Below, piece by piece: positions 8,138 to 51,669 of a stretch of 64,000 nt of DNA. A program made the position numbers and the translations under genes. The notes below the pieces were generated by a model. It saw nothing but the letters and a program-made list of their open reading frames with translations. It ran no database searches and was not told the origin of the DNA. The stretch is from IMG/VR virus record IMGVR_UViG_3300029985_000693, positions 1 to 64,000 of that record; one strand, written 5' to 3'. Source of the DNA: an uncultured virus (IMG/VR IMGVR_UViG_3300029985_000693). Taxonomy: Duplodnaviria > Heunggongvirae > Uroviricota > Caudoviricetes. How positions within the stretch are numbered: the first letter of the stretch is position 1; each line of letters starts with the position of its first letter.

Positions 8138-9016
8138 ATGACTTTCCCCAACCAAGTTTCCAGTACTACCACGGATGTAGGTACCCCTTTTGGCCAGATA
8201 AACGTGGGTAATTCTAATGGCTTTACACCTGGAGCGACTGTATTGATAAGTTCTCAGGTATTTCCTACTCCCTATCAATTAAAAATACTATCCATACAAG
8301 GGAATCAATTAAACCTAGTAACCCTACAAGACACCATACCTGATTTAAGCCAATTTGGTACCCTACCTACAGATACCACCACTATCACCCAAATAACTAC
8401 TCCGATAGGATGGTATACCCTTTTAGATGGTAATCCCGGTTCTTCATATTATGGTTATTTTAACAAAGTTACTGGTCCCGATACTGGCAACGCCAATGAA
8501 TGGGATCAGTTTTGGTGCTTAAATGCATCCAATAATGGTGATTCAATAATTTGGATTTGTTCTTCTCCAGGTGTTTGCGCTCCTCAATGGGCTGAAGGCC
8601 AATCCATCCAAATAAACATGCAACGCAGTAATGCTGGTCAAAACTACGTTGCTACTTCTAGTGGTACTACTACTGGGGGAAATGCCCCTACTGGTACAGC
8701 CACAGAAACAGGAACTGATGGAATTACATGGATTTATGTAAATAGTTTACCTGTTGCTACATTTAACAGTATATTATTGGCAAGTCCTGGTGGAAGTCCT
8801 CCAACCTTTGTAAACAATGAGATACCAACAGGTTCAATAGATGGTATTAACGGTACCTTTACTTTACTACACATACCTCTTGATGGCATTAATGTGTATT
8901 TATCGGGATTAAGAGTCCCCCCTGTTAATTATACTTTAATTGGCAATGTTTTTACTTTCGTATTAGGGCAAATTCCACCAGAAGGATCTTATCTTTATGT
9001 CGATTACTCATATTAA
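8138..9016 (+). CDS. Putative virion protein; paralogue of 7380..8051 with an extra C-terminal beta domain
   Basis: Colinear similarity to the upstream ORF; C-terminal FVNNEIPTGSIDGINGTFTL...VDYSY module typical of phage structural proteins. Confidence 0.6.
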   Translation: MTFPNQVSSTTTDVGTPFGQINVGNSNGFTPGATVLISSQVFPTPYQLKILSIQGNQLNLVTLQDTIPDLSQFGTLPTDTTTITQITTPIGWYTLLDGNPGSSYYGYFNKVTGPDTGNANEWDQFWCLNASNNGDSIIWICSSPGVCAPQWAEGQSIQINMQRSNAGQNYVATSSGTTTGGNAPTGTATETGTDGITWIYVNSLPVATFNSILLASPGGSPPTFVNNEIPTGSIDGINGTFTLLHIPLDGINVYLSGLRVPPVNYTLIGNVFTFVLGQIPPEGSYLYVDYSY

Positions 9017-10244
9017 GTTTTCTCGTATAACAGGTATTTTAGGTGTAATTGGTCTTATAGCTATAGGGGCCGTTGGTTTTAGGTTTAAGGACGCTATTGC
9101 TGCGGCTACTGGTATTAATACCCAACAAGCTATAACCGCTGCTCCTGTTGCTATGAATATGTCCGGTTTGGATGCAGGAGAAGGGGTTAGTGTAGCTTTT
9201 GCCAAGGCCGATCACGTACACCCTATATCCGGTATATTGTCTCCAATTAACGGAGGGACTGGTCTAAGTGTGGATTCTGGCACCTTCATAATGACCAACG
9301 CTTTGGATGGAGGACAAATTAATGTACAAGCATACATAACTGGTAAAACAGATTATACCCAACAAAGTACCACAATGACCGTAATAGGTGGTCTTGGTTC
9401 AAATGACGGTATGGACATTTTCGGTGGAGACTCAACAGATGGAGGTCAATCTGGTTTCGGCCTAGTCATTTGGGCTGGTAACTCCAATGGTGGCTCCGAC
9501 TTAAACGCAGACGGAGGGGTCGGAGGTAGCGCCTTTTTGGCCTTCGGAACAGGAGAAGCTCAAGGACTTACAGGTATTGGTGGTCCCAGGAACGGATGGG
9601 GACTTTTAGGATATGGTGGTTGCCAAGGAGAATTCTACTATTGTGGAGCTATTGCTTCTGAATACGTAGGAGATGGAGTTGAAGGTTATGGTTATGGGGG
9701 TAACGGTTATTACGGTGTAAGAGGTATTGGAGGTACCCTAACAGATGGAGGTGGAACCACTACAGGAGTAAGAGGTGATGGTTCTCAGGCTGGAGGTAAT
9801 GGAGGTCAGTTCTACGCTCACGGTGGTAATTATGCTGGTATTATAACTCAAGGTGGTCCAGATGGTGGTCCAGGAGCATATATAATTGGTGGAACCGATG
9901 GTGGAGCAGCTTTAGTGTTGTCTCCAAATTCTGGTCCAGCAATTGCAATGCTCCCAACAGCCCCTCCAATGAGTCCAACCACAAATGGTTATATTTATCA
10001 AGATAATGTATTAAATTCATTTATGGTAGGAGATGGCACCTATTCCTACCGTATGCCTAAATGCAAAGTTCACGCTCTTAATGGTTCGGGTATTTACACC
10101 CAAAGTGTTGAAACAGGATCTACCGGATGCTCCGTTACGGACCAAGATAACGCTATTGCTGGTAAATGCAAAATAGCAGCAACCACTCTTACCGTAACAA
10201 TACCCGGTGGAGCTTCAGACAATATAAACCTCTGTTACCAATAA
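8997..10244 (+). CDS. Gly-rich fibre-like protein with N-terminal signal/anchor segment
   Basis: ILGVIGLIAIGAVGF hydrophobic segment; AKADHVHP fibre-type motif; G-x-G beta-helix-like repeats; four C-terminal Cys. Confidence 0.6.
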   Translation: MSITHIKFSRITGILGVIGLIAIGAVGFRFKDAIAAATGINTQQAITAAPVAMNMSGLDAGEGVSVAFAKADHVHPISGILSPINGGTGLSVDSGTFIMTNALDGGQINVQAYITGKTDYTQQSTTMTVIGGLGSNDGMDIFGGDSTDGGQSGFGLVIWAGNSNGGSDLNADGGVGGSAFLAFGTGEAQGLTGIGGPRNGWGLLGYGGCQGEFYYCGAIASEYVGDGVEGYGYGGNGYYGVRGIGGTLTDGGGTTTGVRGDGSQAGGNGGQFYAHGGNYAGIITQGGPDGGPGAYIIGGTDGGAALVLSPNSGPAIAMLPTAPPMSPTTNGYIYQDNVLNSFMVGDGTYSYRMPKCKVHALNGSGIYTQSVETGSTGCSVTDQDNAIAGKCKIAATTLTVTIPGGASDNINLCYQ

Positions 10245-21015: not shown

Positions 21016-21348
21016 ATGGCCACAAGTGAATTTGATACTAATCAAATCCTATCTGCTATCGATAGGGTTAATGAAAAGCTTGACAATATCAAGGATAGTC
21101 TTCATTCCGTTCAGTCCGACATGAATGGAAGGTTCAGTGGCTTAACTGAATGGAAAATATCCCAAGAAGACGCCATAGAAGATTTAAAAACCAATTTCAA
21201 AGCTCTTGATACGGCGCGTCAAGAAATGGAAAAAGAATTTGCCGCAAATAGGGCTAAGGATAAAATTGTTACCTTTATAGGTACCACCATATTAACCCTA
21301 GCTGGTTCAGTGGCAACTCATATTTTTTTACATACAGTTACCAAGTAA
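21016..21348 (+). CDS. Coiled-coil protein with C-terminal TM helix (XhlA/holin-like architecture)
   Basis: Heptad pattern followed by IVTFIGTTILTLAGSVATHIFL; start at ATG 21016. Confidence 0.5.
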   Translation: MATSEFDTNQILSAIDRVNEKLDNIKDSLHSVQSDMNGRFSGLTEWKISQEDAIEDLKTNFKALDTARQEMEKEFAANRAKDKIVTFIGTTILTLAGSVATHIFLHTVTK

Positions 21349-21386
21349 TACTTTGATTGCCATAGAAGTCCTAATTTTAGGACCAT

Positions 21387-21968
21387 ATGAACACTCAAAT
21401 ACTAACTGATGCCCTTAATTGGATTATAACCCATAAAACTGCAATAATCGCTGGAGCCTTAGCGGCCCTTCCGACCATTATTACGGCCCTGTCCAACTAC
21501 CCCAAGGCGGCTGGATTAGAAGCTGTACTCAAAACAATTCTAAATATACTGTCTATTGCTACTCACAACGATAGTCCTGGTACATTGAAGCTCCCAGGAA
21601 CGATGTCCAAGCCTCCGGCTGGGCAAACAGCCACACTCAGTGTGGGCAATGGAGCCAAAGTAGCCATAATCATAGCAATGCTACTTCCTTCTACCGGATG
21701 TACCTTCATGAAGTCAATCGCCAAGCCATCAGAACAATGTGGCATGGCCGAAGTTGTTCCAGTGGTAGGAGCTATTTCTGCTGGGGATGAAGCTACGATT
21801 GTTGCTGATCTTGGAAACGCAGTCGAATGTGAAATAGGAGTTATCGTAAGCACTCTTCAAGGTAAAATCGATACTGCTACCGCTGCTGGCAAGGCGAATC
21901 CTTTAACCAAGACCGAACAAAAGTTACTACGGGTTGGTCAAGCATGGCTCAAAGCTCATAACAAATAA
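21387..21968 (+). CDS. Holin-like membrane protein with an internal lipoprotein-signal-like segment
   Basis: Two N-terminal hydrophobic segments, then KVAIIIAMLLPSTGC. Confidence 0.45.
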   Translation: MNTQILTDALNWIITHKTAIIAGALAALPTIITALSNYPKAAGLEAVLKTILNILSIATHNDSPGTLKLPGTMSKPPAGQTATLSVGNGAKVAIIIAMLLPSTGCTFMKSIAKPSEQCGMAEVVPVVGAISAGDEATIVADLGNAVECEIGVIVSTLQGKIDTATAAGKANPLTKTEQKLLRVGQAWLKAHNK

Positions 21969-21994
21969 TTTAGTATTAATTAAAGGAATAAAAA

Positions 21995-23152
21995 ATGGAT
22001 AATTGGCTATTGGTAGCTTTATTTTCTGTAGGAAGCTGGGGGCTCAGCTTTCTTTTAATGAAGCTTTACGACAATAATATAAAATCTGAATTTAAAGCTA
22101 CCGCCAAATCCATTAAAGATACGGCTGATAAGGTAACTAAGGATCTAGTTGCCATTTTAGAAGAAAAGGACAAAACCGTCAATGCTTTGGCACAGGGGAT
22201 CTCTTCACTTAATAGCCACAAAGTTGTAATGGAAGGATTCAGCAAAGAAACAGCTGAAAAACTAGTAGCCATCGATATTGAACACCTTAATGTAAATGGA
22301 AGTATCCGACAAACAAACGATGTATTAAATAAACACAAAACATCGGTTCAAGACAGCTTTACGTCCATAAATAACAAATACGAGGACTTAAGAAATCAAT
22401 TAACAGGCTGTACTCAACACATGGAAATGATGACTAGGATTCAAGAACAAACAACCAAATCCCTAGAATCAGCCATTGCTAATTTAAACGTAAATAAAGC
22501 TACGGTGCTTTCTTTAGATCAAACAAACAATGAAATAAATAAAATCAACCAAGAATTAGCCAAAATCAATAAGTTTGATGAGCTAAAAGAGTCTATTGTA
22601 CGTACAGACATGGCTAAAGTCAACAACGAGAGGCTAACTGAGCTACAAGCCGCCCTATTAGACAACAAGAACCTACACACCCAGCTAGAAATATCCCTTA
22701 AAGAACAACTGGCTAATATTAAAGAATCTTTAATTGGTATTAACAGTGAAAAATCCAAACTAGAATTAGACATAATCAATAAGTTCAATGAATTCAAAGC
22801 TAATTTAGATAAAGAGTCTATTATTAGATTTAATGATCTAAAGAAGGCCGTGGAAAATATTATACCTAATTCCGATACAGCAAATATCGTTAAAACAGCC
22901 ATAGAAGAAGTAGACGCCCTAAAAGATGAAACAATACAAGAATCTATAGTTAAAGCTAAACAAAACCATGAAGCTTATATAGAAGAGCGTAAAAGCCGTA
23001 GGGCTGCTAATCATGAAAATGATCCTAAAACCTTAGAATTTCATCCAGACCAAAAAATAAAAGCCTTAGCCCAAAGAGTCCAAAGAGATTTAACCCAAAA
23101 AGGATACAAAGTAACACTAGAAAAAATAATCAGTATGGTTAAGGGGAGCTAA
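21995..23152 (+). CDS. Membrane-anchored long coiled-coil protein
   Basis: N-terminal TM WLLVALFSVGSWGLSFLLM, then about 300 aa of heptad-rich sequence; AAGGA RBS. Confidence 0.6.
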   Translation: MDNWLLVALFSVGSWGLSFLLMKLYDNNIKSEFKATAKSIKDTADKVTKDLVAILEEKDKTVNALAQGISSLNSHKVVMEGFSKETAEKLVAIDIEHLNVNGSIRQTNDVLNKHKTSVQDSFTSINNKYEDLRNQLTGCTQHMEMMTRIQEQTTKSLESAIANLNVNKATVLSLDQTNNEINKINQELAKINKFDELKESIVRTDMAKVNNERLTELQAALLDNKNLHTQLEISLKEQLANIKESLIGINSEKSKLELDIINKFNEFKANLDKESIIRFNDLKKAVENIIPNSDTANIVKTAIEEVDALKDETIQESIVKAKQNHEAYIEERKSRRAANHENDPKTLEFHPDQKIKALAQRVQRDLTQKGYKVTLEKIISMVKGS

Positions 23153-23156
23153 CCAA

Positions 23157-23498
23157 ATGAATGTATTCACTCCGGTTCCATTTGGACCAACATACAACGT
23201 ATCTACCTTAACTCCATTGATAGGTAATTTTCTTATTAGTGGCTATGATACAGTTATAATTACAATCCAAAACCTAGATTCAACTCATACGGTAACTCTA
23301 GTGGTAGATCCTAGTACTTCTGGGGTCGTATTCAATACAACCCAGCGCCAGCAAAGTTATGCATTGCCGTTAGAGGAAGGGTCGGTGACTATCCAAACTT
23401 CTGCATATCAATATATAAGAGTTTCAGCTCAAACAGACGGTCCATCTTACCCTACCGTTCAAGTAAAGTTTCAAATTAATGGTAGTAAGGATATATAA
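23157..23498 (+). CDS. Small beta-sandwich putative virion protein
   Basis: Alternating beta pattern, YQYIRVSA; TAATG-coupled to the next gene. Confidence 0.5.
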   Translation: MNVFTPVPFGPTYNVSTLTPLIGNFLISGYDTVIITIQNLDSTHTVTLVVDPSTSGVVFNTTQRQQSYALPLEEGSVTIQTSAYQYIRVSAQTDGPSYPTVQVKFQINGSKDI

Positions 23499-26400
23499 TG
23501 AAACGATTTTTCCTACTTATAATTCTAGTGAGTTTTGGTTCTTTAGCCAATGTAAGCGACCCAGCCGTAACAGCTCCGGTTGGTAGGGCTACCCCTTCGG
23601 CCCTGTCTGTTCAAGGTCAAGCCGGAATGATTCCTATAGCTGTTACTTGCTCTAATTGTGGTTCAGGGGGTGGCTCTGGAGGAGGTTCGGGTGGAGGCAG
23701 CGGTGGTTCGGGTGGAGATGTAAACATTATAGAGGTTGGAGGCGCAGCTGTTTCTTTGGGTTCTAAAACTTCTGTTAATAGCTTTCCTGTAGTAATAGCT
23801 TCAGATCAGGGGGATGTGCCTGTTTCTGCTGTTTCTTTGCCACTACCTACCGGCGCGGCAACTTCTGCCAATCAAACCAGTGAAATAACCGTACTGGAAG
23901 CAATTTCAGCTCAATTACCCGCCTCACTAGATGGATCTGGAGATCTAAAGGTACATGAACAAGGCATAGCAAATGTAGATATTACCAACTCAAGCATTCC
24001 CGTGACGCAAAGCGGTTCCTGGACCGTTACAGCTAATGCCGGTACTAACCTAAATACATCCCTGTTGGCCTTGGATACGTCTGTAAATGGTATTTTGGTA
24101 GCCCAAGCATCTACTACCTCTGGAGAAAAGGGACCGCTAGTTCAGGCTGCGGTAACAACATCCGCCCCAACCTATTCCAATGGGCAAACAAGTCCATTAT
24201 CTTTGGATTCTACTGGTAGCTTACGTGTAAACGTAACGGCTGGTGGAGGAGCCAACGCTTCTATAGGTACAATTGGCGCTACTTTGCCTGGATCTGCTAC
24301 CACTGTAGGTTTCAAGGACGGCTCAGGTAATTTGCAAGCGTTTATTGGAGACACCACAAATGGCATTAAAGTACAATTACCTACTGGTTTTGCTACTTCT
24401 GCTTTGCAAACAACAGGAAATGCCACATTGGTTACCATAAATTCAACACTTGGAACCCCTATGCAACAAACAGGTGGTAGCGTTACTGCTAATGCCGGTA
24501 CCAACCTAAACACATCCCTATTGTCTTTGGATACTTCAGTTAATGGTATATTGGTAGCTCAAGGTTCAACGACTTCTGGAGAAAAAGGACCATTAGTTCA
24601 AGCTGCGGTAAACACAGCTGCTCCTGTTTATTTAGACGGTCAAACAAGCGCCCTGTCCTTAGATACTACCGGTAGCTTACGTGTAAACGTAACGGCTGGT
24701 GGAGGAGCCAACGCTTCTATAGGTACAATTGGAAGCGCAATACCATCTTCTGCTACCACTGTTGGATTTAAAGATGGTTCTGGCAATCTACAAGCTTTCA
24801 TTGGTGATACAACAAACGGTATTAAAGTACAATTACCCGGTGGTAGCGTTACTGCTAATGCTGGTACTAACTTAAATACATCCTTATTAGCTTTAGATAC
24901 TTCAGTTAATGGTATTTTAGCTACTCAAGGCTCTACCACCGCTGGAGAAAAGGGTTCCCTGATGATGGGAGCGGTTACCACGTCCGCTCCATCGTACTCC
25001 AATGGGCAGACAAATCCATTCTCTTTGGACGCTGCTGGTAATTTAAGGGTCAACGTAGTGAGCGGAGGTGGTTCTAATGCTTCGGTTGGTTTAACCGGTA
25101 CAACGGCTCCTACTTCAGCGACAGAAATGGGTATGATCACCAGTGGTAACTTAGTTGGTATTACAAGTGGTCAAACAACCATGACGAATAGCCTTCCAGT
25201 GGTAATAGCGTCGGACCAATCTACAATTACGGTACAAGGCGCTGGAACTGGATTAGCTCAATCGGGAGGAGTGTTGTTGACTCAGCCGACCCAAGCAAAA
25301 ACAGCCTCTACCGTATTTAACGCATTAAGTCAAACACTTGTTATCCCTTTGGCTGGCTCTCAAGGGGCTGTATTCCAGCTGACAGCTATTTCAGCGGGTA
25401 CTATGACTGCTGTAGTGGATGCCAGCTGGGACAACGGAACTACGTGGACTAGCTCAGGTTACCAATTCGAAGGAGTATTGAGTTCTGCTACATTTGCATC
25501 CTTAGCTGCAAATACAGGTACAAACGCACTAGACGCTTACATGTTGATCCCAAACAACTCAACCTTTACAGCCAATGCTCCCGCCTACACCCCTACCCAT
25601 TTGAGGATTAGGGTTTCAGCCTATTCATCTGGCTCCATTACAGGAACCCTTACTGCTATACCTGTTAATGCAAATCCAAGCACGGGAGCTATTAACGGCA
25701 CATACAACCTTCCAGGTGCCGCCACCCTAAACGGTGTAGATATCGGTAACGGTTCAATGGGACCCGTTTGGGGTGCAACTGTCAACTCATTAGCTCCTCA
25801 AGTCGGTATGGAAGTATTGACAGGTGTTGCTACGTCGGCTATCAGGGCTGCAACCTCAGGAAATATGGTCATGCCTAGCATCGATAATGCCAACGGAGAT
25901 GCTTTTGTCGAAATTGCGAGCGGTGTAACAAAAGCGGCTGTAGTTACAAACAATACCACCGCCGTTGGTATTGGTTTGGAAGTGCTAGATCACGTAGCTG
26001 AAACACTAGGAAGCACTGCGTCATATTCAACCGGAAATAGCGTGGCCGCAGCTGTGGACCTTTCGGGTCGTACATATATAGTAGGGCAGATAGCAGATAA
26101 CACCGCTGCCGCTGGCAATCCTGTAGCCATTGCAGCCAAGGGCGTAGCCGATGGCGCTGCTCCTTCAGCCGTATCTGCCGGTAGCACTGGTTATCCAATT
26201 ATGTCACTCGATCGTCGTCTTTATGTGGATACCACTCATCCTAATTTTTTCTCTTACAACATGAGCGGACAAACGACAAATACTCAATTAGTTGGTTTAT
26301 CTGGTGCTAGCGTTTCATATTATATTGATTCTGTTACGTTTTCGACTAGCGCTGCTACAAACATGTCTTTGGTTAGTAGCACTACAGCTGGTACGGCTTG

Positions 26401-26572
26401 CGTTTCAACACCAACAATTGTTGTTCCTACTATATACCTAAACTCGGGTGGGGCTGGTGCCACCATGACTTTCCCAAGTCCCATCAAAGTGACCGCAAAC
26501 TCCGCGTTATGCTGCACTGTAAGTGCAGCCAACGCTTCTAGCTGTGTCGTAACTGGACATTTGGCTCCTTAA
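23498..26572 (+). CDS. 1024-aa fibre-like repeat protein with a Sec-type signal peptide
   Basis: MKRFFLLIILVSFGSLA| N-terminus; GGGS linker; long internal repeats; jelly-roll-like middle and C-terminal domains. Confidence 0.7.
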   Translation: MKRFFLLIILVSFGSLANVSDPAVTAPVGRATPSALSVQGQAGMIPIAVTCSNCGSGGGSGGGSGGGSGGSGGDVNIIEVGGAAVSLGSKTSVNSFPVVIASDQGDVPVSAVSLPLPTGAATSANQTSEITVLEAISAQLPASLDGSGDLKVHEQGIANVDITNSSIPVTQSGSWTVTANAGTNLNTSLLALDTSVNGILVAQASTTSGEKGPLVQAAVTTSAPTYSNGQTSPLSLDSTGSLRVNVTAGGGANASIGTIGATLPGSATTVGFKDGSGNLQAFIGDTTNGIKVQLPTGFATSALQTTGNATLVTINSTLGTPMQQTGGSVTANAGTNLNTSLLSLDTSVNGILVAQGSTTSGEKGPLVQAAVNTAAPVYLDGQTSALSLDTTGSLRVNVTAGGGANASIGTIGSAIPSSATTVGFKDGSGNLQAFIGDTTNGIKVQLPGGSVTANAGTNLNTSLLALDTSVNGILATQGSTTAGEKGSLMMGAVTTSAPSYSNGQTNPFSLDAAGNLRVNVVSGGGSNASVGLTGTTAPTSATEMGMITSGNLVGITSGQTTMTNSLPVVIASDQSTITVQGAGTGLAQSGGVLLTQPTQAKTASTVFNALSQTLVIPLAGSQGAVFQLTAISAGTMTAVVDASWDNGTTWTSSGYQFEGVLSSATFASLAANTGTNALDAYMLIPNNSTFTANAPAYTPTHLRIRVSAYSSGSITGTLTAIPVNANPSTGAINGTYNLPGAATLNGVDIGNGSMGPVWGATVNSLAPQVGMEVLTGVATSAIRAATSGNMVMPSIDNANGDAFVEIASGVTKAAVVTNNTTAVGIGLEVLDHVAETLGSTASYSTGNSVAAAVDLSGRTYIVGQIADNTAAAGNPVAIAAKGVADGAAPSAVSAGSTGYPIMSLDRRLYVDTTHPNFFSYNMSGQTTNTQLVGLSGASVSYYIDSVTFSTSAATNMSLVSSTTAGTACVSTPTIVVPTIYLNSGGAGATMTFPSPIKVTANSALCCTVSAANASSCVVTGHLAP
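24025..25085 (+). repeat. Three copies (third partial) of a long coding repeat, including an exact 62-bp duplicate at 24215-24276 and 24671-24732
   Basis: VTANAGTNLNTSLL.LDTSVNGIL..Q.STT.GEKG starts near 24025, 24482 and 24848. Confidence 0.9.
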
Positions 26573-26573
26573 T

Positions 26574-29500
26574 ATGCTTAAGAGATTATTTATATTATTA
26601 ACAATAGTTGGAAGTGCAGCCTATGCCGGAGATGCATGGGTAGGAAGCAACAGTGCTACATCCTATTATAGCACTAATAACGGTTCTACGTGGACTGCTG
26701 CAACTGGAATGGCAAGTCAAGGAATACAACCTTCATGCGTTGGTAGTAATTGCACTACCTTTTTTTATGCAGCTACTGGAAATACAGCTTATTATACAAC
26801 AAATGGAGGAGCTACATGGAGTACATCAACACTGCCAGCAACTCAGGGGTGGCAAACTCCAAGTTGTGTTGGAACCAACTGTAGCGCAACTGCTGGTTGG
26901 TTTGCTGGAGTAAACACAACGACTGCGGCTTTTAGCTCTAACAACGGACAAACATGGGTATCGTCTACATTGCCATCATCTCAATTGTGGTGGGCTCCCT
27001 CTTGTTCTACTGGAAGTGTTTGTGTTGTTGTATCTGGAAGCACATCAACAAACGTTGCCGCTTTTTCTACTAATAGTGGATCTACATGGACCGCTTCTAC
27101 TTTACCGGCAACCGCCTCATGGGGATATTCGGTGTGCAATGGTTCAAACTGTGTCGTCACGGAAACAGGATCAACCACAACGGCGGCCTTTAGCAGTAAT
27201 GGTGGTTCTACCTGGGCAACATCTACGATGCCAAGTTCAGGTCAGTGGAGAGTTTCTTGTTCTGGAACAACATGTGCTGGAACAAGATATGATACAAACA
27301 CAACAGCGGGAGCTTTCTCTTCCAATGGAGGAGCTACTTGGTCTGCGTCAACCCTACCATCAAGCGGAACTTGGAGTTCCATATCATGTTATTCATCTAC
27401 TTGCTTTGCTTTTAGGAATGACTCTGCCACCACCGCTGCTGCCGTATCAACCAATGGTGGCTCTACTTGGTCAGCTTCTACAATGCCATCGTCAGCAGCA
27501 CCGTGGGGTAATCCTTACGCTGATTTTGGCGTTACAAACAATGCAGCCGTTGTCTGCAATGCCACTCTATCTGGGTGTATGACATACAATGGAGGTACTG
27601 GTTATGCCTTTACGGCAAATAGCGGTACTTCTTGGACGGGTGGCACTATTGGTTCTGGTTATAGCGGATGTGGTCTAGCGTATGCTTCAGTGGCACCGGC
27701 TATCACGTCCTTTACTGGCTCTCCAGGTGTATTTGGGGCGGCTGTAACAATTACAGGTTCTGGGTTTACAGGCGCTACATCATTGTTGTTTAATAATTTT
27801 TCCCAACCAACATTCACTATAGCTTCTGATTCTACAATTACAACTACAGTTCCAACCGGGGCAACAACAGGACAATTATCTGTAACATCACCATCAGGTA
27901 CTGGTCTGTCCGCTTCCAATTTCATAGTTTCTGGACATTCTGGTGGGGCCTTCTTTATAGGTAATAACGGTAGCAATCCAAAAGCCAATGTAGCTTACAG
28001 TACAAACGGCTCATCTTGGTTTTCAGCAACAGCTTTTGGATCAACATTTTGGAGTAATCTACAAGGAAATACAACGTCTTGCAATTCTACCACAAATACA
28101 TGTGTTCTTACTGTCGATCCAAGTTCACTGGGTTTTTTTACAGCTTATTCTCCCAATGGAGGTCAAACATGGCAATTAAGTTCTCAATTAGCCGCCAACA
28201 CATGGGGGGGTGGGGTGAGCTGCCCATCTCTTTCTGGATGCGTAATGGTACAAGGTATTTCGACCAATACGGTAGCTTTTTCAACAAATGGAGGCTTATC
28301 ATGGAGTACTTCTACAACTCCATCTACCACGACCTGGAATGCTCCTGCATGTGTTGGAGCTAATTGTACACTTACCTCAAATGCCGGTACGGCTGGAGCG
28401 GCTTATTCAACAAATGGAGGTTCTACATGGACCGCTGCGACGATGCCTTCTGCCGCAACATGGAACACACCTACATGTGTAAGTACGTTTTGTACGGTAA
28501 CGGCTTATTTTACAACTACAACAGCGGCGGCTTATTCAGCCAATAACGGACAAACTTGGTCTGCCGCCATAATGCCTTCTTCCCAATCATGGAATCCTCC
28601 GACTTGTAGCGGAACGACTTGTTCAGCAACAACAAACACAACAACAACCGCAGCTGCCTATAGCACCAACAATGGCTCTACGTGGGGTGCAGCTACAATG
28701 CCATCTTCAAATCAATGGAACTCACCATCTTGTAGCGGAACTGTTTGTGTCGCCACTATAGTAGCATCCGGCACCACAGCGGCTTATTCAACAAATAGCG
28801 GGCAAACCTGGACAGCCGCTACAATGCCATCTTCTCATGCTTGGGGAAATCCAGTTTGTGTGAGTAGCAATTGCATTGCGATTCCTTTTGGAGGTACAGC
28901 TACTACCGCTGCTGCATATTCAATAAACGGTGGTCAAACTTGGACAGCCACTACACTACCAACATCGCAATCGTGGGGTCAACCAACATGTATTAATACA
29001 AATTGTACGGTAACGGCTTATTACAGCTCAAGCGCTGCTGCATATTCGACAAATAACGGTCAAACTTGGACTGCAACAACTATGCCACCGCAAGACGTTC
29101 CATTAAATGCAATATCATGTGGCTCTACAACATGCGCAAGCACAAGTAGCTTGTATTCTGGCACTGGAAGTTTCTATACTGGTAATGGATATTACTGGAC
29201 CAGTCCAAACTCTCTTCCGGGAAATTCATTAAACTGGAAGGCTGCTTCCTGTGCTGGTTCTACATGTTCAACAGTAGTAACCAATTCTAGTACAGCCGCT
29301 GCTTTTAGCTCTAATGGAGGATCGTCTTGGGTATCCGCAACAATGCCTTCTTCGGCAATATGGAATACACCTCTATGTATTGTTGGCGGGTTTTGCGTTG
29401 CAACAAACGCTACATCTGGTACTGCTGCTGCCTATTCGACAAACGGTGGTTCTACTTGGGTCGCAGCAACGATGCCTTCGAGTGGTGTTTGGAACACTCC

Positions 29501-30149
29501 TTCCTGTTATGGAATTTACTGTTCTGCTACAAATACAACCTCCGGAACCGCTGCTGCTTATAGCTCTAATAACGGTTCTACCTGGGTTGCCGCAACGATG
29601 CCTTCGAGTGGTGTCTGGAACGCTCCAGGTTGTTCTGGTTATACTTGTGCCGCCACAACCACGGCATCGGGTACTGTTGCTGCTTATAGCTCTAATAACG
29701 GCTCTACCTGGGTAGCCGCAACGATGCCTTCAAGTGGTGTTTGGAACGCTCCATATTGCTATGGTGTATATTGCATAGCTACACTTACTACGTCTTCCAC
29801 AGCGGCTGCTTATAGTTCTAACGGTGGTTCTACCTGGGTTGCAGCAACGATGCCTTCGGCGGCGGTATGGAATGGTAATCCTATTTGCAATGGAGCTATT
29901 TGTGTAGATGTAACGGCTGCGGCTGGTGTTACGACTATGGCCTACAGTCTTAACAATGGAGCTACTTGGTCTTTGGGTACCCTACCTGTAGCGGCTACGT
30001 GGAGCAATCCAACCGTAGGGGTTCTCAATATCACTATAGCAAATACAGGATTTACTAATTATTGGGGATACAACGACTTAATCCACGATCCTGTGGGTTG
30101 GCCATCCTCATTAGAAATATTTAATCAATACACACGTAATTTTAATTAA
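26574..30149 (+). CDS. 1191-aa Cys-rich BNR/Asp-box-like beta-propeller protein with an IPT/TIG domain and signal peptide
   Basis: MLKRLFILLTIVGSAAYA|; about 24 S-x-N-x-G-x-T-W boxes; PAITSF...GAAVTITGSGFTGAT IPT domain near 27693-27929. Confidence 0.8.
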   Translation: MLKRLFILLTIVGSAAYAGDAWVGSNSATSYYSTNNGSTWTAATGMASQGIQPSCVGSNCTTFFYAATGNTAYYTTNGGATWSTSTLPATQGWQTPSCVGTNCSATAGWFAGVNTTTAAFSSNNGQTWVSSTLPSSQLWWAPSCSTGSVCVVVSGSTSTNVAAFSTNSGSTWTASTLPATASWGYSVCNGSNCVVTETGSTTTAAFSSNGGSTWATSTMPSSGQWRVSCSGTTCAGTRYDTNTTAGAFSSNGGATWSASTLPSSGTWSSISCYSSTCFAFRNDSATTAAAVSTNGGSTWSASTMPSSAAPWGNPYADFGVTNNAAVVCNATLSGCMTYNGGTGYAFTANSGTSWTGGTIGSGYSGCGLAYASVAPAITSFTGSPGVFGAAVTITGSGFTGATSLLFNNFSQPTFTIASDSTITTTVPTGATTGQLSVTSPSGTGLSASNFIVSGHSGGAFFIGNNGSNPKANVAYSTNGSSWFSATAFGSTFWSNLQGNTTSCNSTTNTCVLTVDPSSLGFFTAYSPNGGQTWQLSSQLAANTWGGGVSCPSLSGCVMVQGISTNTVAFSTNGGLSWSTSTTPSTTTWNAPACVGANCTLTSNAGTAGAAYSTNGGSTWTAATMPSAATWNTPTCVSTFCTVTAYFTTTTAAAYSANNGQTWSAAIMPSSQSWNPPTCSGTTCSATTNTTTTAAAYSTNNGSTWGAATMPSSNQWNSPSCSGTVCVATIVASGTTAAYSTNSGQTWTAATMPSSHAWGNPVCVSSNCIAIPFGGTATTAAAYSINGGQTWTATTLPTSQSWGQPTCINTNCTVTAYYSSSAAAYSTNNGQTWTATTMPPQDVPLNAISCGSTTCASTSSLYSGTGSFYTGNGYYWTSPNSLPGNSLNWKAASCAGSTCSTVVTNSSTAAAFSSNGGSSWVSATMPSSAIWNTPLCIVGGFCVATNATSGTAAAYSTNGGSTWVAATMPSSGVWNTPSCYGIYCSATNTTSGTAAAYSSNNGSTWVAATMPSSGVWNAPGCSGYTCAATTTASGTVAAYSSNNGSTWVAATMPSSGVWNAPYCYGVYCIATLTTSSTAAAYSSNGGSTWVAATMPSAAVWNGNPICNGAICVDVTAAAGVTTMAYSLNNGATWSLGTLPVAATWSNPTVGVLNITIANTGFTNYWGYNDLIHDPVGWPSSLEIFNQYTRNFN
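29420..29870 (+). repeat. Near-identical 126-bp (42-aa) tandem coding repeats
   Basis: Box-leading Tyr codons at 29433, 29559, 29685 and 29811. Confidence 0.9.
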
Positions 30150-30169
30150 ATTCAAAGGAAATAATCAAA

Positions 30170-30499
30170 ATGCCAGCTAATTTAAGTTGTGACCGTTGTG
30201 GAACTCCATACGTACCTACAAACGGTGATACCACCGAAAATGCCACTATAAGCATTCGCAGGGCTAGTGATGCTGCTCCTGGAGGTAACTTCGTTCGATT
30301 TGTTTGCCCTACTTGTGAGGCTATGGACGAACAAATCGTTGCTTTTGCATTCCCATGGTCTAATTATGCTGATTTGGTGTTAAATCCACAACAAATAGCG
30401 GCTGCAAAGGCGGCTGTGGTAGCGTCAATGACTCCACCTGTCACTACCACTCAAGCTCCTGCTCAACCTCCGTCTGAAACGACCGTAGCGCCTCAATAA
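30170..30499 (+). CDS. Small CxxC...CxxC protein with Pro/Thr tail
   Basis: CDRC and CPTC; AAGGA RBS. Confidence 0.6.
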   Translation: MPANLSCDRCGTPYVPTNGDTTENATISIRRASDAAPGGNFVRFVCPTCEAMDEQIVAFAFPWSNYADLVLNPQQIAAAKAAVVASMTPPVTTTQAPAQPPSETTVAPQ

Positions 30500-30502
30500 G
30501 CC

Positions 30503-30985
30503 ATGAAAAACATATATTTGGGGTTCTCAAACCACAATGATTGGTTTTCAAAACTAATCATGTGGGTTACCGAGGCACCGGTAAGTCATTGTTTTGTATT
30601 GATTAATGATCCCATATTGGGAGACATGGTTATGCAAGCTACTTCGGGAGGAGTGCAGATAAACACTCTGAAAACCTTTAAATTGACTCACAATATAGTT
30701 ACCGTGATAGAACCCAAAGTTGATTTATCTCAAGCCATAAAGGAAATCATAGAAGAAGACTTGGGAGACGGATATGACTATACGGGTGATTTAGGTGTAG
30801 CTTGGATTAGACTGGGAAAATGGTTAGGAAAGAAATGGCACAACATTTTCCATACCAAAAAACATGAGTTTTGCTCTGCATTGTTAACCAAATTAATACA
30901 AAAAGCCCGGTGGCCTGGATCGGAAACACTGGTACCAGACGAAGTGGACCCTGGCGAACTATTAAAGTTCGTCAGTAAACCTTAA
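30503..30985 (+). CDS. Permuted papain-like (YaeF/YiiX, permuted NlpC/P60) enzyme
   Basis: His before Cys order: VSHCFV...GYDY...EFCSAL. Confidence 0.75.
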   Translation: MKNIYLGFSNHNDWFSKLIMWVTEAPVSHCFVLINDPILGDMVMQATSGGVQINTLKTFKLTHNIVTVIEPKVDLSQAIKEIIEEDLGDGYDYTGDLGVAWIRLGKWLGKKWHNIFHTKKHEFCSALLTKLIQKARWPGSETLVPDEVDPGELLKFVSKP

Positions 30986-31767
30986 TTACTCCAATCTATT
31001 GGGTAAATTAGGTAGTGGTTTCGTATTTTATCTACAGCATGGACTTGTAATGCCTCTTCTGAATCCATCTTCCAGTCAGCATCTTTAATTTTAGAAACAT
31101 AGTCTTCCACCTTCATATACATACGTTTGGCTATAAAATCAGCCATAGAGTTAGACATTTCTTCCAATGAATCCAATCTTTCCTTTAATTCATACTTATT
31201 AAGACTTGACTCAGGAATAACCGAAAACGGTTCATGGGTTAAAAGTATAGCGTCAGGAGCCATTTCTCTGAATGGGCACGCCTGTAATATGTAAAATCCC
31301 ATACTAGCACTGTATTCATCTACATAACAAGTTACAGTCTTAGGGTAGGAGGCGATTAATTGAGCCAATCTCATTCCTATCTCTACATCTCCACCTTCGG
31401 TGTTTAGTCTCAATAAAATGGTATCTATAGAAGGATCCCGAACGTGATCTATAAATATATCTATTAGTTTTATAGAGTTACTACCATTAATCTTGCCGTC
31501 GAAGTCTATAATCAGTTGACGGTCTTTGACTCCCATCTCTATAACCCTATCGGTACTCTTAGTTCCCTCACCGTCAGGTATGCACAAAAGACGGGAAAAT
31601 GGTAAATGTAGGTAATTGGGTACATTTACTACTGTTTGATTCGGAGAATCGTTCTTAATTACGCTTTGGGGTAGCAATCTGCAATCATATCCACCAACTA
31701 AAGGCAATAGAAACAAACCTATATTAAACCCCAACACCAACGCCACAATCTTAGATAATGAAACCAT
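30982..31767 (-). CDS. ClpP-like serine peptidase with N-terminal hydrophobic signal/anchor
   Basis: LNTEGGDV..G, SASMGFYILQAC..R.M, LLTHEP, DWKMDSEEAL....VD. Confidence 0.8.
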   Translation of the reverse strand: MVSLSKIVALVLGFNIGLFLLPLVGGYDCRLLPQSVIKNDSPNQTVVNVPNYLHLPFSRLLCIPDGEGTKSTDRVIEMGVKDRQLIIDFDGKINGSNSIKLIDIFIDHVRDPSIDTILLRLNTEGGDVEIGMRLAQLIASYPKTVTCYVDEYSASMGFYILQACPFREMAPDAILLTHEPFSVIPESSLNKYELKERLDSLEEMSNSMADFIAKRMYMKVEDYVSKIKDADWKMDSEEALQVHAVDKIRNHYLIYPIDWSN

Positions 31768-37840: not shown

Positions 37841-40375
37841 ATGGCTACTACTTATGCAAATCCACCCCAAGATACCACTCCGCTAGATACTATAGACCAC
37901 ACAATCATTCCGATTGGTGGTAACAATCTCAATCCTACCCTATTTGCCCAGGTAGGCACGGATGCCACCTTATGGAATAAAGCTTTCCCTTATAGATTTC
38001 AGATACTTGAACAGGATCCCATTAAAGGTCTAATGAATACAGGTAGATATTTCGACCTACCCATCCCACCGGAAGCTTTGGAAATCAACACACCCTTTGC
38101 CATTAATACATCTGTAACCCTAAATGGTATTATAGAACAACACAATGCGTTCCCATTGCTCAATATCTTTCTTAGGGGCTCTACGGGTGTATTAAACAAA
38201 CTAAACGTAAGGACTGGGAGTAATCAATTACCAGCCAAAGGTATTCTTGCTGGTACAATAAACGCTGTAAATGCCTTTGCTAAAGATATTAAAAGCTTAA
38301 ATGCACAACCAGGACCAAATACGGCTATTTATTCTCCTTCACTGATAGGAAATACAGATTTTTCAGGAAGCGGTCAGTCTCTTTCAGATGCAGTAACTGG
38401 AGCTGTTAATGCCTCTTTGGCTGGAACCGGCTATTCCAGGTTCCTGGCCTTACGTAACTTCTTAGAATCATACGCTATTTTGAAGAAACAACAAGCCTAC
38501 CAAGGATATCGATTAGCATTTACCACCTACAAAGACCAATATAGTTATATTTGTACTCCCAAGATGTTCCGTATGGTAAGATCTGCGGAAAGTCCTTTCG
38601 AGTTTAAATACGAAATACAATTGGAATCTTGGCAAAGAATCAAAGCTGACCAAATTAAACCAAATTTTAGCGGTCAGCATCGTGCATCGCAAGCCAATAA
38701 TAGTACTTGGCAAAACATACTGAAATACGTTCAATTAGGATTGACCTTACTAAACGACCTTTCCGGTATAATTTCAGGTGTAATCAGTGACGTTCAAGGC
38801 ATTTTGAATGTTGTTAGGGAAATATCATTATTCCTTAAGAATCTGGTAGGAGTAGCGTTACAAGCTGCCGACATGCCTGCGGTCATTGTTAATAACCTAA
38901 AAAATGCTATTTTAGCTTCTATAAATAATATAGCTACCGCTACTGCTGGTTCCAATGGTCAATTTCCGTCCAGTCAACAAGTTCAAGCAGATTATCAAGC
39001 CTGTTTAAGATGGTGGACGACCCAGCAAATGGTTAATCCAATAGTGATAAACGGTCCTGTTAACAATATGTTAAGGACTAATGTGGATTACATATTTGAA
39101 AATCCAAGCCAGCACTATGGGTTTTTCAACTCTATTGCTTTGAATAGTCTAAACAACATGACTTCAGCTATACAAGCTCAAATCAATACAGAGATTCAAA
39201 ATGTATCGGCTTACAGTGTGGTTGATTTTAAGAACGCAGTAGCCACCCTACAGAACGCATCGAATGTATATGCTCAAGCGGTAGGAGCTAGTGACCCAAC
39301 CTATATAGAAACCTACCAATTGGGATCTGTAAATCAAATAAGGGACACACCTACAGATGATGATTATGCGGTATTAAATACCATTAATGATATGATCATT
39401 CAAACCAACAATATAATAGCAGCTCTACAAAGCAATACAAACATCACAACACCTCAAGCGGTTACATTTGTTGCAAATCTAGCAAATCAGGCCGGAATAC
39501 CGTTTGATATTCCTTTAAGTAAATATCCAATTCCATTTCCTTACGGTGGAACCCTTGAAATGATAGCTCAAAATTACCTAGGAGATCCAGATAAATGGAT
39601 AGAAATAGCCACCCTGAATGGCTTAAGGTCTCCCTATGTAGACGAAATAGGATTTTTGCTAGATTTAACCACCAATGGCAACAACGACACTATTACCGTA
39701 GCGGATGTAAGCAATCTAATACTAGGGCAAACAGTATGGATTGGTTCCAATACGGTGCCAGTACAATCCAGGTCTATTTTGGCAATTAATAATCTAAGTC
39801 CAGATAGCTGGTCTGTGACCTTGGATGGTCCAGATGATCTAGGTATACTAAAAACTAGTGACAATGCCTATTTACATGCATTTTTACCATTTACCGTAAA
39901 CTCACAAGGATTCGTAGCTATTCCATCTCAAAATCCACCGGTTGGAGCTAGCGATCCTGTATCTAGAAACGATCAAATCAGTGTTGCCCAGCAAATATTC
40001 GATGCTGCTGGTACAGATTTATTAATAGACTCCGACAACGACCTAATTATAACTCAAAACGGTGATTGCAGATTAAGCCAAGGTGTCCAAAATATCATCC
40101 AAACCCTCAAAATTCTTATCGAATTACCAAGAGGGTCTCTCCTACATCACCCTACAATAGGTGTAAATCTAGTAGGTGGCAGTTTGGCAGACCTGAGCGC
40201 TACAGACATAGCATCTACCATCAAAACAGCTATAGATCAAGATGGTTTTTTCAGCAATTGGACATATTCCGTTACAGTAAAGGTTGACTCCAATTGGGCC
40301 AATGTAACCATTAACCTAAATGTAAGCAATGTACAACAATTACTGCCAATTACATTCAAGCTAAACATTAACTAA
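37841..40375 (+). CDS. Multidomain baseplate protein with LysM and C-terminal gp25-like domain
   Basis: TLEMIAQNYLGDPDKWIEIATLNGL (LysM); GVQNIIQTLKILI..PRGSLLHHPTIG (gp25/W-like). Confidence 0.7.
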   Translation: MATTYANPPQDTTPLDTIDHTIIPIGGNNLNPTLFAQVGTDATLWNKAFPYRFQILEQDPIKGLMNTGRYFDLPIPPEALEINTPFAINTSVTLNGIIEQHNAFPLLNIFLRGSTGVLNKLNVRTGSNQLPAKGILAGTINAVNAFAKDIKSLNAQPGPNTAIYSPSLIGNTDFSGSGQSLSDAVTGAVNASLAGTGYSRFLALRNFLESYAILKKQQAYQGYRLAFTTYKDQYSYICTPKMFRMVRSAESPFEFKYEIQLESWQRIKADQIKPNFSGQHRASQANNSTWQNILKYVQLGLTLLNDLSGIISGVISDVQGILNVVREISLFLKNLVGVALQAADMPAVIVNNLKNAILASINNIATATAGSNGQFPSSQQVQADYQACLRWWTTQQMVNPIVINGPVNNMLRTNVDYIFENPSQHYGFFNSIALNSLNNMTSAIQAQINTEIQNVSAYSVVDFKNAVATLQNASNVYAQAVGASDPTYIETYQLGSVNQIRDTPTDDDYAVLNTINDMIIQTNNIIAALQSNTNITTPQAVTFVANLANQAGIPFDIPLSKYPIPFPYGGTLEMIAQNYLGDPDKWIEIATLNGLRSPYVDEIGFLLDLTTNGNNDTITVADVSNLILGQTVWIGSNTVPVQSRSILAINNLSPDSWSVTLDGPDDLGILKTSDNAYLHAFLPFTVNSQGFVAIPSQNPPVGASDPVSRNDQISVAQQIFDAAGTDLLIDSDNDLIITQNGDCRLSQGVQNIIQTLKILIELPRGSLLHHPTIGVNLVGGSLADLSATDIASTIKTAIDQDGFFSNWTYSVTVKVDSNWANVTINLNVSNVQQLLPITFKLNIN

Positions 40376-40405
40376 GCACCAATTTTATCATCAGAACCCC
40401 AAATT

Positions 40406-46102: not shown

Positions 46103-46105
46103 TAT

Positions 46106-48875: not shown

Positions 48876-48938
48876 ATGAAAAAACAACAACTTGAAAATC
48901 CAAAAATGGCTAAAAAAGAACAAAAAGGCGGTATATAA
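48876..48938 (+). CDS. Possible 20-aa peptide MKKQQLENPKMAKKEQKGGI coupled to the tail fibre gene
   Basis: AAGGA upstream; stop overlaps the next ATG (TAATG). Confidence 0.3.
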   Translation: MKKQQLENPKMAKKEQKGGI

Positions 48939-51247
48939 TGTCTGTACTTAGAGCGGCTGCTTTATATAGTCAACAGCGCGTAGACGTTTCTACATTGCGG
49001 CTTTTTGACGCAGGAGTGCAAGGAGATTTTGACTGTTTAGCCGGTCAAATTATGAGTGGTAGGGATCCTTTGGTGATCAGAGGGGCTACTATCAATCCAG
49101 CCGGTATTGGTGGTCCTCCTACGGCCCTACAATTAGACCTTTCCGATACAGCGCTGCTCCATTATGGAGCCACCTCTTCGGGAACCATATTTTATACAGC
49201 TGAATCAGAGCCAGTACAAATACTATCCACCACAAATCCACTAATTGTTGGTTCCTTTACGGCAAATACAGTAAATTATGTTGGTTTGGATTTGGTCCGA
49301 ATACCAGACGACACAACTGCCGACCAAGTAGCTTTTTTGATACCCAATTTGGATCAAGAAGTATACCGCGAAACAGATACAGGGCAAATTCTACAATACC
49401 GTATTTACATTTCTACTACCCTTTTCGGTTCTAGTCCAAATGTTTGCCCGGTAGCTCAAGTCGCTGTAGATGACCGTGGCAACGTAACGAGCATAGAGGA
49501 CTGCCGACCCATGTCGTTCCGGCTAGGAAGCGGTGGAGACAGTCCTAGCGCCTCAAATAGCTATGTTTGGCCTTCGTCCACCCTGCGCTTAGTAGAACCA
49601 AATATAAGTTCGACCAGCACCAGCAATAATCCATTCGTTTCTGCTGATAAGTCTATTTACAGCCAAAAAGCTTGGCAAGATGCCGTAATGTCTCGTATAT
49701 GGGAAATAGGTGGTGGTAGCAATTGGTACAGCCCATCCACAGGTGCAAACGATGTTGTAACGGCCATAGGTGCTGGAGGTGGATTTACCTATGTATCTCC
49801 AACACTTACATGGACCGGAATAACTGTTGGTTTTACAAATTCAAACGCCAACTACAATACCATTACAAATGGTACTGCCGATTTAAGCGCTACAGGTAGT
49901 GTACTTTACATACTATTAGACAGAAGCGATACCAGCCCTAGTACCGCTTTAGTTCCTGCTGTTTGTCAGTGGAACAACCTATACTTACAGGGATCTGGGA
50001 CTCCTGGAATCCCATATGCTTTGGCTTGGAATTTCAACGGTACGGTTTACGCTAGAGGAGATGGAAATCCAGTTCCTATTGTTTTAGGAGGGGTTGCTAC
50101 GGTTAGCTCTGGAGGTACTGGCACTACTGGTATCGTTGAAATCTACAACGACCCCACTAGCTTATACACAAACAGTGGAACCTCCAGTACCTCCACCCCT
50201 ATTGTACCGGTGATGTCTGGAGCCCATAGCGGACAAATATTAGCTCTAGGCTTAACACGTCCAGCTTCAGGAACAATAATGATTGGTGCCAATACCTATG
50301 ATACTGGAGTGAGTATTGGTCAATCTGGATTTGGAACAAGTTTAACTTTAACTGGCGCTCTTAATCATCACAACTCAGTTTCATCAGGAGTTACATGGTT
50401 TCAGACAGACAACGTAATTGGTGGATATTCAGACGTGTTCCGGGGAAAAGCTGGAAATTCAACCACAAATGCCTTAATTGAGGTGGTTGGACAAACCCCT
50501 GGCGCTCAAATTAAACTAGAAAACGACTCTTCTACTTTATTGAGTTTGGTAGGAAATACAACCGCCTACCCTGCCGCTGGAACAGGAACAGGAGCTACAA
50601 ATACTGGTTCTCAAATCAATACGGGGACATCAGGCCCATTGGTTCTAGTTGGAGGTGGAGTGTCAACTAGCGGTCCTGGAGTGATTTTAAATACAGAAGC
50701 AGCGTTAGTAAGTGGGAAAGCTGTGTCTATTAGAAATTTCAACACAGAAATAGCATCAATAGACTATCAAGGTTATATAACAAGTGCCGGAAATCTAATT
50801 CCACCTCCAGGTGTTGGTATGTGTAATTATGCATCAGCCGCCGTAAGCGTTACAAATAGTCAAAGTCATTTATGGGTAGGTTCCGTAAGTGCAAACCCCG
50901 TAACACCAATTGGCGGTGTTACAATTTCTACAACCGCTGGAGCTACAAATGGAGCACTTACAATACCAGCGACTCAGGGTACATACATAATAACCATTGG
51001 AGGGACGGCCCTTTTTTCAAGCGCTGCAAATTATACCTACTCAATTTATAACATGACTGTTGGTTCGGCATCTTTTACTGGAACAGTCACACTAAGCTCC
51101 ACGGCAGCCGTCGTATTGTCTGGAGCCTATGTCTTCCAGCCACTTGGGATTTCAAATACATTTATTATTTCATTGGTAGCTGGTCTTGCTGGACCATACA
51201 CTGTCACAAGTGATAGTTTGTTTTTAATGGCACAAAGAGTGGCTTAA
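48938..51247 (+). CDS. Tail fibre / baseplate-attached fibre protein
   Basis: N-terminal QQRVD...DF attachment-like domain; Thr/Ser/Gly-rich distal part; follows baseplate genes. Confidence 0.65.
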   Translation: MSVLRAAALYSQQRVDVSTLRLFDAGVQGDFDCLAGQIMSGRDPLVIRGATINPAGIGGPPTALQLDLSDTALLHYGATSSGTIFYTAESEPVQILSTTNPLIVGSFTANTVNYVGLDLVRIPDDTTADQVAFLIPNLDQEVYRETDTGQILQYRIYISTTLFGSSPNVCPVAQVAVDDRGNVTSIEDCRPMSFRLGSGGDSPSASNSYVWPSSTLRLVEPNISSTSTSNNPFVSADKSIYSQKAWQDAVMSRIWEIGGGSNWYSPSTGANDVVTAIGAGGGFTYVSPTLTWTGITVGFTNSNANYNTITNGTADLSATGSVLYILLDRSDTSPSTALVPAVCQWNNLYLQGSGTPGIPYALAWNFNGTVYARGDGNPVPIVLGGVATVSSGGTGTTGIVEIYNDPTSLYTNSGTSSTSTPIVPVMSGAHSGQILALGLTRPASGTIMIGANTYDTGVSIGQSGFGTSLTLTGALNHHNSVSSGVTWFQTDNVIGGYSDVFRGKAGNSTTNALIEVVGQTPGAQIKLENDSSTLLSLVGNTTAYPAAGTGTGATNTGSQINTGTSGPLVLVGGGVSTSGPGVILNTEAALVSGKAVSIRNFNTEIASIDYQGYITSAGNLIPPPGVGMCNYASAAVSVTNSQSHLWVGSVSANPVTPIGGVTISTTAGATNGALTIPATQGTYIITIGGTALFSSAANYTYSIYNMTVGSASFTGTVTLSSTAAVVLSGAYVFQPLGISNTFIISLVAGLAGPYTVTSDSLFLMAQRVA

Positions 51248-51270: not shown

Positions 51271-51669
51271 ATGGCTCAACCAACCACTTTACAACAATTT
51301 AACGTAGCATTATCCTCCAACGGCGCTGCCAATGGAACCGTAGTTATTCCAACAAACAACGCATCTATGACTATGGTAGGAGCTACTGTGTTCTTGAACG
51401 ACAGTACCAATACCATTGGGCAAGAATGCGTTGTAACGTCTGTAGACGGGACCACCGGTACGATAGGTATACGGTTTGTACGTAATGAGCAAACTACCAA
51501 CAATGACTATGGTTTCGGTGGAAGCGCCAATTACGGACCGCCTCAATATGGCAGGACTAGTTGTGCGGCTTACCTAACAGCCAATAGTGCCTACATGTTA
51601 CAGCCGGCCCAGCTATTGTTTAATGGTAAATCAGACGATAGCTCAACTGCTGGCCCTCTAACAACCTAG
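51271..51669 (+). CDS. Small virion protein related to the N-terminal domain of 7380 and 8138
   Basis: G..nG.v......vGATVfl pattern; upstream AATTTTA. Confidence 0.55.
   Translation: MAQPTTLQQFNVALSSNGAANGTVVIPTNNASMTMVGATVFLNDSTNTIGQECVVTSVDGTTGTIGIRFVRNEQTTNNDYGFGGSANYGPPQYGRTSCAAYLTANSAYMLQPAQLLFNGKSDDSSTAGPLTT

Follow-up and report, generated by a model that had tools for sequence, protein, structure and literature searches.

The 64,000-nt window analyzed here is the first 64 kb of a linear virus record of 125,960 nt (IMG/VR IMGVR_UViG_3300029985_000693; estimated to be 78% complete), which belongs to an uncultured tailed phage and whose sequence occurs in peat metagenomes. Two adjacent open reading frames (ORFs) of this window, named here A and B, encode proteins that, judged from their sequences, are very probably cleaved, exported and folded oxidatively in the periplasm. 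Together with the gene of 113 amino acids (aa) upstream of A, they may contribute to a two-compartment particle, in which a cytoplasmic jelly-roll base captures, at lysis, a periplasmic disulfide-stapled stalk and a three-propeller adhesin, and phages would move back and forth between this and an all-cytoplasmic route by gain or loss of the leader and the cysteines within one appendage family. We put the probability of this reading at roughly 0.45. The features concerned are as follows.

23157..23498, + strand: leaderless, cysteine-free 113-aa protein, a single jelly roll (AlphaFold2 model from 29 rows, predicted local distance difference test (pLDDT) score 95)
23498..26572, + strand: ORF A, 1024 aa (ORF and translation)
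23498..23548, + strand: 17-aa leader of A, Sec type, with cleavage predicted behind S-L-A (own rule, start analysis)
26574..30149, + strand: ORF B, 1191 aa (ORF and translation)
26574..26627, + strand: 18-aa leader of B, Sec type, with cleavage predicted behind A-Y-A (own rule, start analysis)

The initial annotation had proposed that two adjacent genes of more than 1000 aa begin with Sec-type N-termini, and both the positions and the N-termini proved correct. Each protein has, at its true start, a basic n-region, a hydrophobic core and small residues at −3 and −1, as in Sec substrates of signal peptidase I, and no second hydrophobic helix was found in either of them. Our leader rule (hydrophobic core plus basic n-region) was passed by A, B and four other ORF N-termini (8997, 30982 and two small genes) out of the 133 of the 126-kb genome, and by none of 524 internal methionines. 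The ATG of A overlaps the stop codon of the 113-aa gene (TAATG), with AAGGA 7 nt upstream, and the ATG of B, which has a weak Shine-Dalgarno match, lies one base past the stop of A. The next in-frame ATG is at residue 44 in A and at residue 46 in B. True starts downstream of the leaders, a possibility raised at the outset, are not favored; the starts are coupled, and the in-frame GTG at residue 11 of A has no Shine-Dalgarno match. An assembly or start-codon artefact was likewise rejected. Contigs of four further sequencing runs showed no letter difference within the parts of 22900-30400 that they cover (one of them covers 18 of 30 bins). The sequence of a further locus, L163, agrees letter for letter over 16,339 nt, though the two possibly share one source.

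It might be argued that the leaders are non-functional, and that A and B are ordinary cytoplasmic fibres whose cysteines pair after lysis or never. The leaders were judged by a sequence rule and the ribosome-binding site of B is weak, which would fit this idea; the textbook n-h-c layout of two adjacent genes, the failure of every internal start to pass, and the dozens of homologues that carry these domains behind other leader sequences and have gained cysteines make it very unlikely.

The paired cysteines reported for both proteins are present. A has six cysteines (51, 54, 968, 1005, 1006 and 1016), and the 45 of B form 22 Cx4-6C pairs, mostly one per blade of its propeller repeats, plus C366. 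The combination of leaders and paired cysteines suggests that A and B likely pass through Sec and acquire disulfide bonds in the periplasm. Of the top 120 homologues of A, our rule assigned a leader to 33 and none to 77, and 10 ambiguous ones were dropped. Cysteines numbered 6.2 per 1000 aa in leader-bearing homologues and 1.6 in leaderless ones (p 2.5e-8), and the ratio of even non-zero to odd cysteine counts was 22:10 in the former and 24:32 in the latter (p 0.027), although in both comparisons the rows are related and not independent.

For this reason, alignment columns and a tree were also examined. The C968/C1005-6 pair of the C-terminal domain was present in 12 of 15 leader-bearing rows (A included), in two of four ambiguous rows and in none of 12 leaderless rows. 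On a tree of 41 rows, in which four were relabelled as leader-bearing by eye and the other ambiguous rows were taken as leaderless, the leader label switches six times, and at least three of these switches are forced by strong branches. The four leaderless rows that fall within the cysteine-pair clade lack the pair, and leader-bearing P0113 is the sister of leaderless P0034. In P0001, all six cysteines of A are kept behind another leader. With leader and cysteines correlated in both protein families, export and oxidative folding in the periplasm, as originally proposed, are well supported.

A regular expression detected 22 Asp-box (BNR) blades in B at a spacing of about 43 aa, most of them with a Cx4-6C hairpin, and the Pfam BNR profile PF02012 matched with an E-value of 1e-24. 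The blades are interrupted by an IPT/TIG-like domain (about aa 375-455); many IPT/TIG proteins match 4-12% of B at about 30-59% identity, though Pfam gave zero matches on this piece. A 40-aa tail closes the protein. This layout suggests three propellers of about eight blades, although a single-sequence model of B reached a pLDDT of only 29.5. Enzymes of the sialidase/GH33 type use a catalytic Arg triad and acidic residues. A sialidase function was rejected as unlikely for B, in which charged residues are nearly absent (Arg 0.4%, Glu 0.2%, Asp 0.8%) and no sialidase Pfam match was found, and we consider with moderate confidence that B is a non-catalytic, three-propeller surface-binding head. 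Its blades are nearest to fibre-type blades. The best 13 of 23 propeller matches have no regular cysteine pair, and most of these 13 carry a YG-x-G-x-F turn where B has Cx4-6C, so that leaderless fibre blades show a plain turn at the site of its cysteine pair; seven lower-scoring matches, one of them named from Acidimicrobiales, have a cysteine pair in every blade.

ORF A begins, after its leader, with a CxxC motif and a Gly linker, followed by three shaft repeats of about 125-150 aa (aa 168-585), a stretch at about aa 596-724 that may be an internal beta-sandwich-like region, and a C-terminal domain (aa 915-1024) with four cysteines. The repeat is visible in the DNA, where 24025-24381 and 24481-24837 are 80% identical. 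No match to A was found in Pfam, PHROG, NCBIfam or the PDB. Of 7,999 candidates scored, 911 were relatives of A. Viruses account for about 90% of its Atlas neighbours, which also gave a weak lead to XepA (0.86), and three of its homologues carry a precomputed PF27453 (XepA) label. We propose, with moderate confidence, that A is a stalk with jelly-roll-type end domains. No cultured phage with A, B, two of their parts or the homologue P0029 was found by tblastn with the low-complexity filter on.

The TAATG-coupled 113-aa gene had been noted as lacking a signal and as a candidate adaptor, and the sequence bears out the coupling and the missing signal. Its modelled fold, compared with 48,161 chains, best matched the N-domain of XepA (PDB 6i56; Z 11.2, root-mean-square deviation 2.5, 103 aligned residues, 9% identity), and its comparison with YomS gave a Z of 8.3. 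The sequence has no PDB profile match; its Atlas neighbours are mostly viral, no homologue was found in viral contigs, and metagenomes returned only the identical L163. A profile comparison of its family with the domains of A was negative, and nine small genes that precede other A-like genes gave, when compared in the same way, a weak match only (probability 4.6%, E 0.009, 78 columns). A complex prediction with four copies of the protein and residues 18-60 of A (score 0.01, mark 0.32) gave no answer either way. Its modelled fold makes the protein a reasonable candidate for a cytoplasmic docking base or adaptor.

According to the mechanism that we propose, the 113-aa protein would stay in the cytoplasm late in infection and may bind the particle. 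A and B would pass through Sec, lose their leaders and be oxidised by the Dsb enzymes of the host. When the compartments mix at lysis, the appendage would dock, possibly via the 113-aa jelly roll, and the docked appendage would act as a flexible first-contact adhesin beside the ordinary fibre. That A and B attach to completed particles at lysis, where they would form an accessory appendage for adsorption, we regard as about as likely as not.

The phage is Mx1-like. When 50,697 phage records were compared, the sheath matched one cultured phage only, Myxococcus phage Mx1, and capsid, sheath, baseplate and replication genes are common to the two phages in the same order, with identities of 55% for the major capsid, 41% for the sheath and 38% for the baseplate fibre. 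From this kinship, the host is probably a diderm, perhaps a myxobacterium. Pfam and PHROG scans placed a contractile tail in the window (sheath at 17888, baseplate genes at 37841-48417), and the tube (20434), the tail chaperones (32041 and 32437) and the tape measure (32897) were assigned by position and partial matches to Mx1; the tube protein, searched alone, had no viral relatives. A and B sit after the presumed tube and before the presumed tail chaperones, with the baseplate genes about 8-23 kb downstream of them. Their description as lying inside the tail module holds for position but not otherwise, since this variable post-tube interval is occupied in Mx1 by a 31-kb island that carries tRNAs and accessory genes.

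The usual fibre position is occupied by another gene:

48938..51247, + strand: leaderless fibre after the baseplate genes, common to Mx1 (38% identity over 500 aa to Mx1 139197-141188)

The fibre that follows the baseplate genes is leaderless in both phages. We rejected A and B as baseplate-anchored tail fibres, a role filled by this ORF at a site far from them. A putative docking site of A or B on the head or neck is more likely than one on the baseplate.

The genomic context of the A family was followed in 67 distinct IMG/VR loci with the repeat of A (75 fetched, minus seven duplicates and one without an ORF), 25 of which have a leader (17 by rule and eight by eye). In nine of the 12 loci scanned, PHROG matches to genes for head, tail, ejection or lysis lie close by (terminase/portal, major head, baseplate, ejection, endolysin), the scan having covered leader-bearing loci only. 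The cassette lies between terminase and portal, after the major head gene or after the baseplate genes, depending on the locus, so the A family is a movable late-region cassette and is not tail-specific. The gene downstream of A-like genes also bears a leader in 10 of 17 against 5 of 42 cases, some of the five being in loci with leaders missed by the rule. A peptide L-x-L-x-G-x-G was often seen at the mature N- or C-terminus of leader-bearing partners after A-like genes (L001:10663, L121:8717, L138, L141:8698, L151:8648, L158 and L114:11125; four matches by a regular expression made after the fact, the others by eye); it recalls the peptide of the RcGTA fibre that binds a pentamer, and B does not have it.

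In the main rival explanation, possible but less probable, A and B are also exported and form disulfides, yet they are not stably built into the virion and instead stay on the envelope of the infected cell or are released at lysis as free adhesins, decoys or exit helpers. XepA, the best fold match, is encoded in the PBSX lytic cassette and is reported to be exported yet absent from mature particles (PMC6834076); three lysis-like membrane genes similarly precede A and B, in which we found no anchor domain, and the lineage seems to export another product of this interval, a ClpP-like protein. A loosely attached, detachable tailspike is also described for RcGTA in a recent report (10.64898/2026.07.19.739414). 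However, leaderless homologues of A, which could not exit the cytoplasm before lysis, sit in the structural clusters of Mx1-like phages (L026 and L038 before the sheath region, L053 after the tube), and the flip of leader status between the close relatives P0113 and P0034 suggests one job with two folding routes.

A third explanation, by which the locus is a captured bacterial secreted adhesin cassette that benefits the infected or carrier cell and is unrelated to morphogenesis, draws on the match of the IPT/TIG domain of B to bacterial secreted proteins and on the accessory nature of the corresponding Mx1 interval. It is rendered improbable by the viral relatives of A, whose repeat was found at only four loci among 185,579 prokaryote genomes (all on contigs of metagenome-assembled genomes, the leader-bearing one in Ca. 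Acidoferrum), by the nearness of the blades of B to fibre-type blades, by a codon usage of A and B that agrees with the remaining phage genes, and by their translational coupling in a late region.

Several observations weigh against the two-compartment particle. Leaders were called by our own rule and not by SignalP; three of the 15 leader-bearing rows do not have the C-terminal cysteine pair, and the cysteine count of B is odd. The seven cysteine-paired matches of B and its TIG domain are of bacterial type, none of these seven passes the leader rule (some have long leaders by eye and others look truncated), and the leader-bearing Asp-box proteins P0217 and P0196 have no cysteine pair at all. 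The fold of the 113-aa protein is generic, unrelated proteins following at Z 10.3, and the RcGTA base Rcc01079 was not among its 50 best fold matches. No virion-anchor domain was recognised in A or B with PHROG, Pfam and the PDB, and PDB sequence searches gave nothing credible. No Dsb-like gene was seen in the ORFs scanned (46 of 69 outside the window, in a record estimated to be 78% complete), and a search of the genome for the TraF family was empty. The reported absence of XepA from mature particles counts on the same side. Finally, the module is absent from Mx1, in which A, B, 8997 and the 113-aa gene have no homologues and large leader-bearing ORFs are lacking, and none of 44 Ala/Gly/Ser/Thr-rich ORFs from sheath-defined Mx1-like loci (30 of 80 loci) had a classical leader, two loose flags being dismissed by eye and only 43 of the 80 loci extending 5 kb past the sheath. 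The A/B module is accessory for this reason, and we describe the locus as an accessory form of a phage appendage cassette, with exported, cysteine-stapled products.

Partial similarities to known systems were found. In the XepA/YomS study (PDB 6i56 and 6i5o; PMC6834076), XepA is a 279-aa two-domain pentamer from a monoderm host, whereas here the small jelly roll that resembles its N-domain has a leaderless gene of its own, and A, a long protein made of repeats, carries a leader and cysteine pairs. The 113-aa fold, modelled as a monomer, resembles such pentameric phage jelly rolls, including the base of the RcGTA head spike (PMC6834076; PMC7296036). In the latter, a small jelly-roll gene (Rcc01079) is likewise followed by a fibre gene (Rcc01080), whose flexible, carbohydrate-binding product serves reversible first attachment. 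That fibre binds via residues 2-10 of its unprocessed N-terminus (PMC7296036), whereas A has a leader there and no Leu-Gly repeat; Rcc01079 has neither a sequence match nor a listed fold match to the 113-aa gene. The Bdellovibrio MAT fibres are also phage-fibre-like adhesins with signal peptides, but they are chromosomal, act on predator cells, share a post-leader domain and often have an S74 chaperone (PMC10769870), whereas A and B are phage-encoded and have no S74 Pfam match. In Mx1 (OR576727.2; PMC10720576), the post-tube interval contains tRNAs and a leaderless pectin-lyase-type tailspike, with no A or B there.

Our literature search, outside which most subscription papers lie, turned up no tailed phage whose appendages combine a Sec leader with periplasmic disulfides. 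The receptor-binding protein pIII of filamentous phages has a Sec leader, periplasmic disulfides and a membrane anchor, inoviruses being assembled at the membrane; unlike pIII, A and B have no anchor helix and belong to a contractile-tailed phage. To our knowledge, the accepted view is that the assembly of tailed-phage particles takes place entirely in the reducing cytoplasm. If the proposed reading is true, host secretion and oxidative folding let phages deploy adhesin folds that they could not otherwise use, and virion parts are overlooked when annotation treats phage genes with leaders as directed at the host. The locus also offers a natural comparison of one protein family with and without leader and cysteines, for which the cultured relative Mx1, being devoid of the cassette, could serve as a test chassis.

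Other genes lie close to A and B or share their properties.

8997..10244, + strand: third leader-bearing, Gly-rich, six-Cys protein, in the neck region (sequence and own rule; absent from Mx1)
21016..23152, + strand: three membrane-protein genes of 110, 193 and 385 aa, lysis-cassette-like (anatomy)
21373..21379, + strand: last start-proximal AAT(T/C)TTA before A, the next start-proximal copy being at 30138
30503..30985, + strand: permuted papain-like (YaeF/YiiX) gene (profile scans)

ORF 8997 does have the N-terminal hydrophobic segment ascribed to it (residues 11-27), although its leader is less classical, being longer and followed by FRFKD. It lies after two leaderless beta-rich genes (7380-8051 and 8138-9016). 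The three membrane genes had no match at cut-off in Pfam, NCBIfam or PHROG; we take them, by their anatomy, to be a holin-like protein, a holin with an internal lipobox-like motif, and a protein with an N-terminal anchor and a long coiled coil. The second (21387-21968), with its holin-like N-terminal half and the lipobox-like motif near residue 105, has one close homologue only.

The motif AAT(T/C)TTA, found by eye and after the fact, occurs 12-36 nt upstream of 17 of 37 ORFs of the structural region (1535-51257, + strand) and of none of 33 ORFs of the replication region, and is likely a late promoter. Its copies bracket 21387-30149, which suggests late expression of A and B. A scan for sigma-70 promoters remained at chance level.

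The papain-like gene also closes leaderless appendage cassettes with A-like genes in L026, L038, L040 and L059. Next to it, 30982-31767 (− strand) encodes a ClpP-like protease with an N-terminal leader. Homologues of it were seen in 17 sheath-defined loci, mostly in the post-tube interval and nearly all with Sec or lipoprotein-like leaders, and an exported ClpP-fold protease thus seems to be a trait of the lineage; a second, leaderless ClpP is encoded at 54035-54679.

In the product of 53406-54035 (− strand), an N-terminal membrane anchor is followed by a linker rich in Thr and Lys and, at the C-terminus, by amphipathic beta strands that end in Phe; we presume it to reach from the inner to the outer membrane as a single spanin-like protein, which hints at a diderm host. 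The N-terminal part of the Mx1 pectin-lyase tailspike has a counterpart (E 2e-5) in a 132-aa gene (51271-51669), a free-standing anchor-like domain, and 7380 and 8138 start with a domain that looks similar. In the head-neck region, a PI3/PI4-kinase-like gene (1549-2832), presumably of the HipA-type fold, is kept in Mx1 and relatives. The primase gene (56524-58599, − strand) is split by an intein with a LAGLIDADG homing domain, and the ribonucleotide reductase at record positions 71838-74780 has an intein too. Record positions 115001-125960 have a GC content of 50-53%, against about 40% elsewhere, and a DUF932 gene with a third-codon-position GC (GC3) of 0.71; they may form an early region that has adapted to a host of high GC content. 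The major capsid gene belongs to a block (record positions 94946-105348) that is on the minus strand and inverted relative to Mx1, where the block is co-oriented with the portal and the prohead protease.

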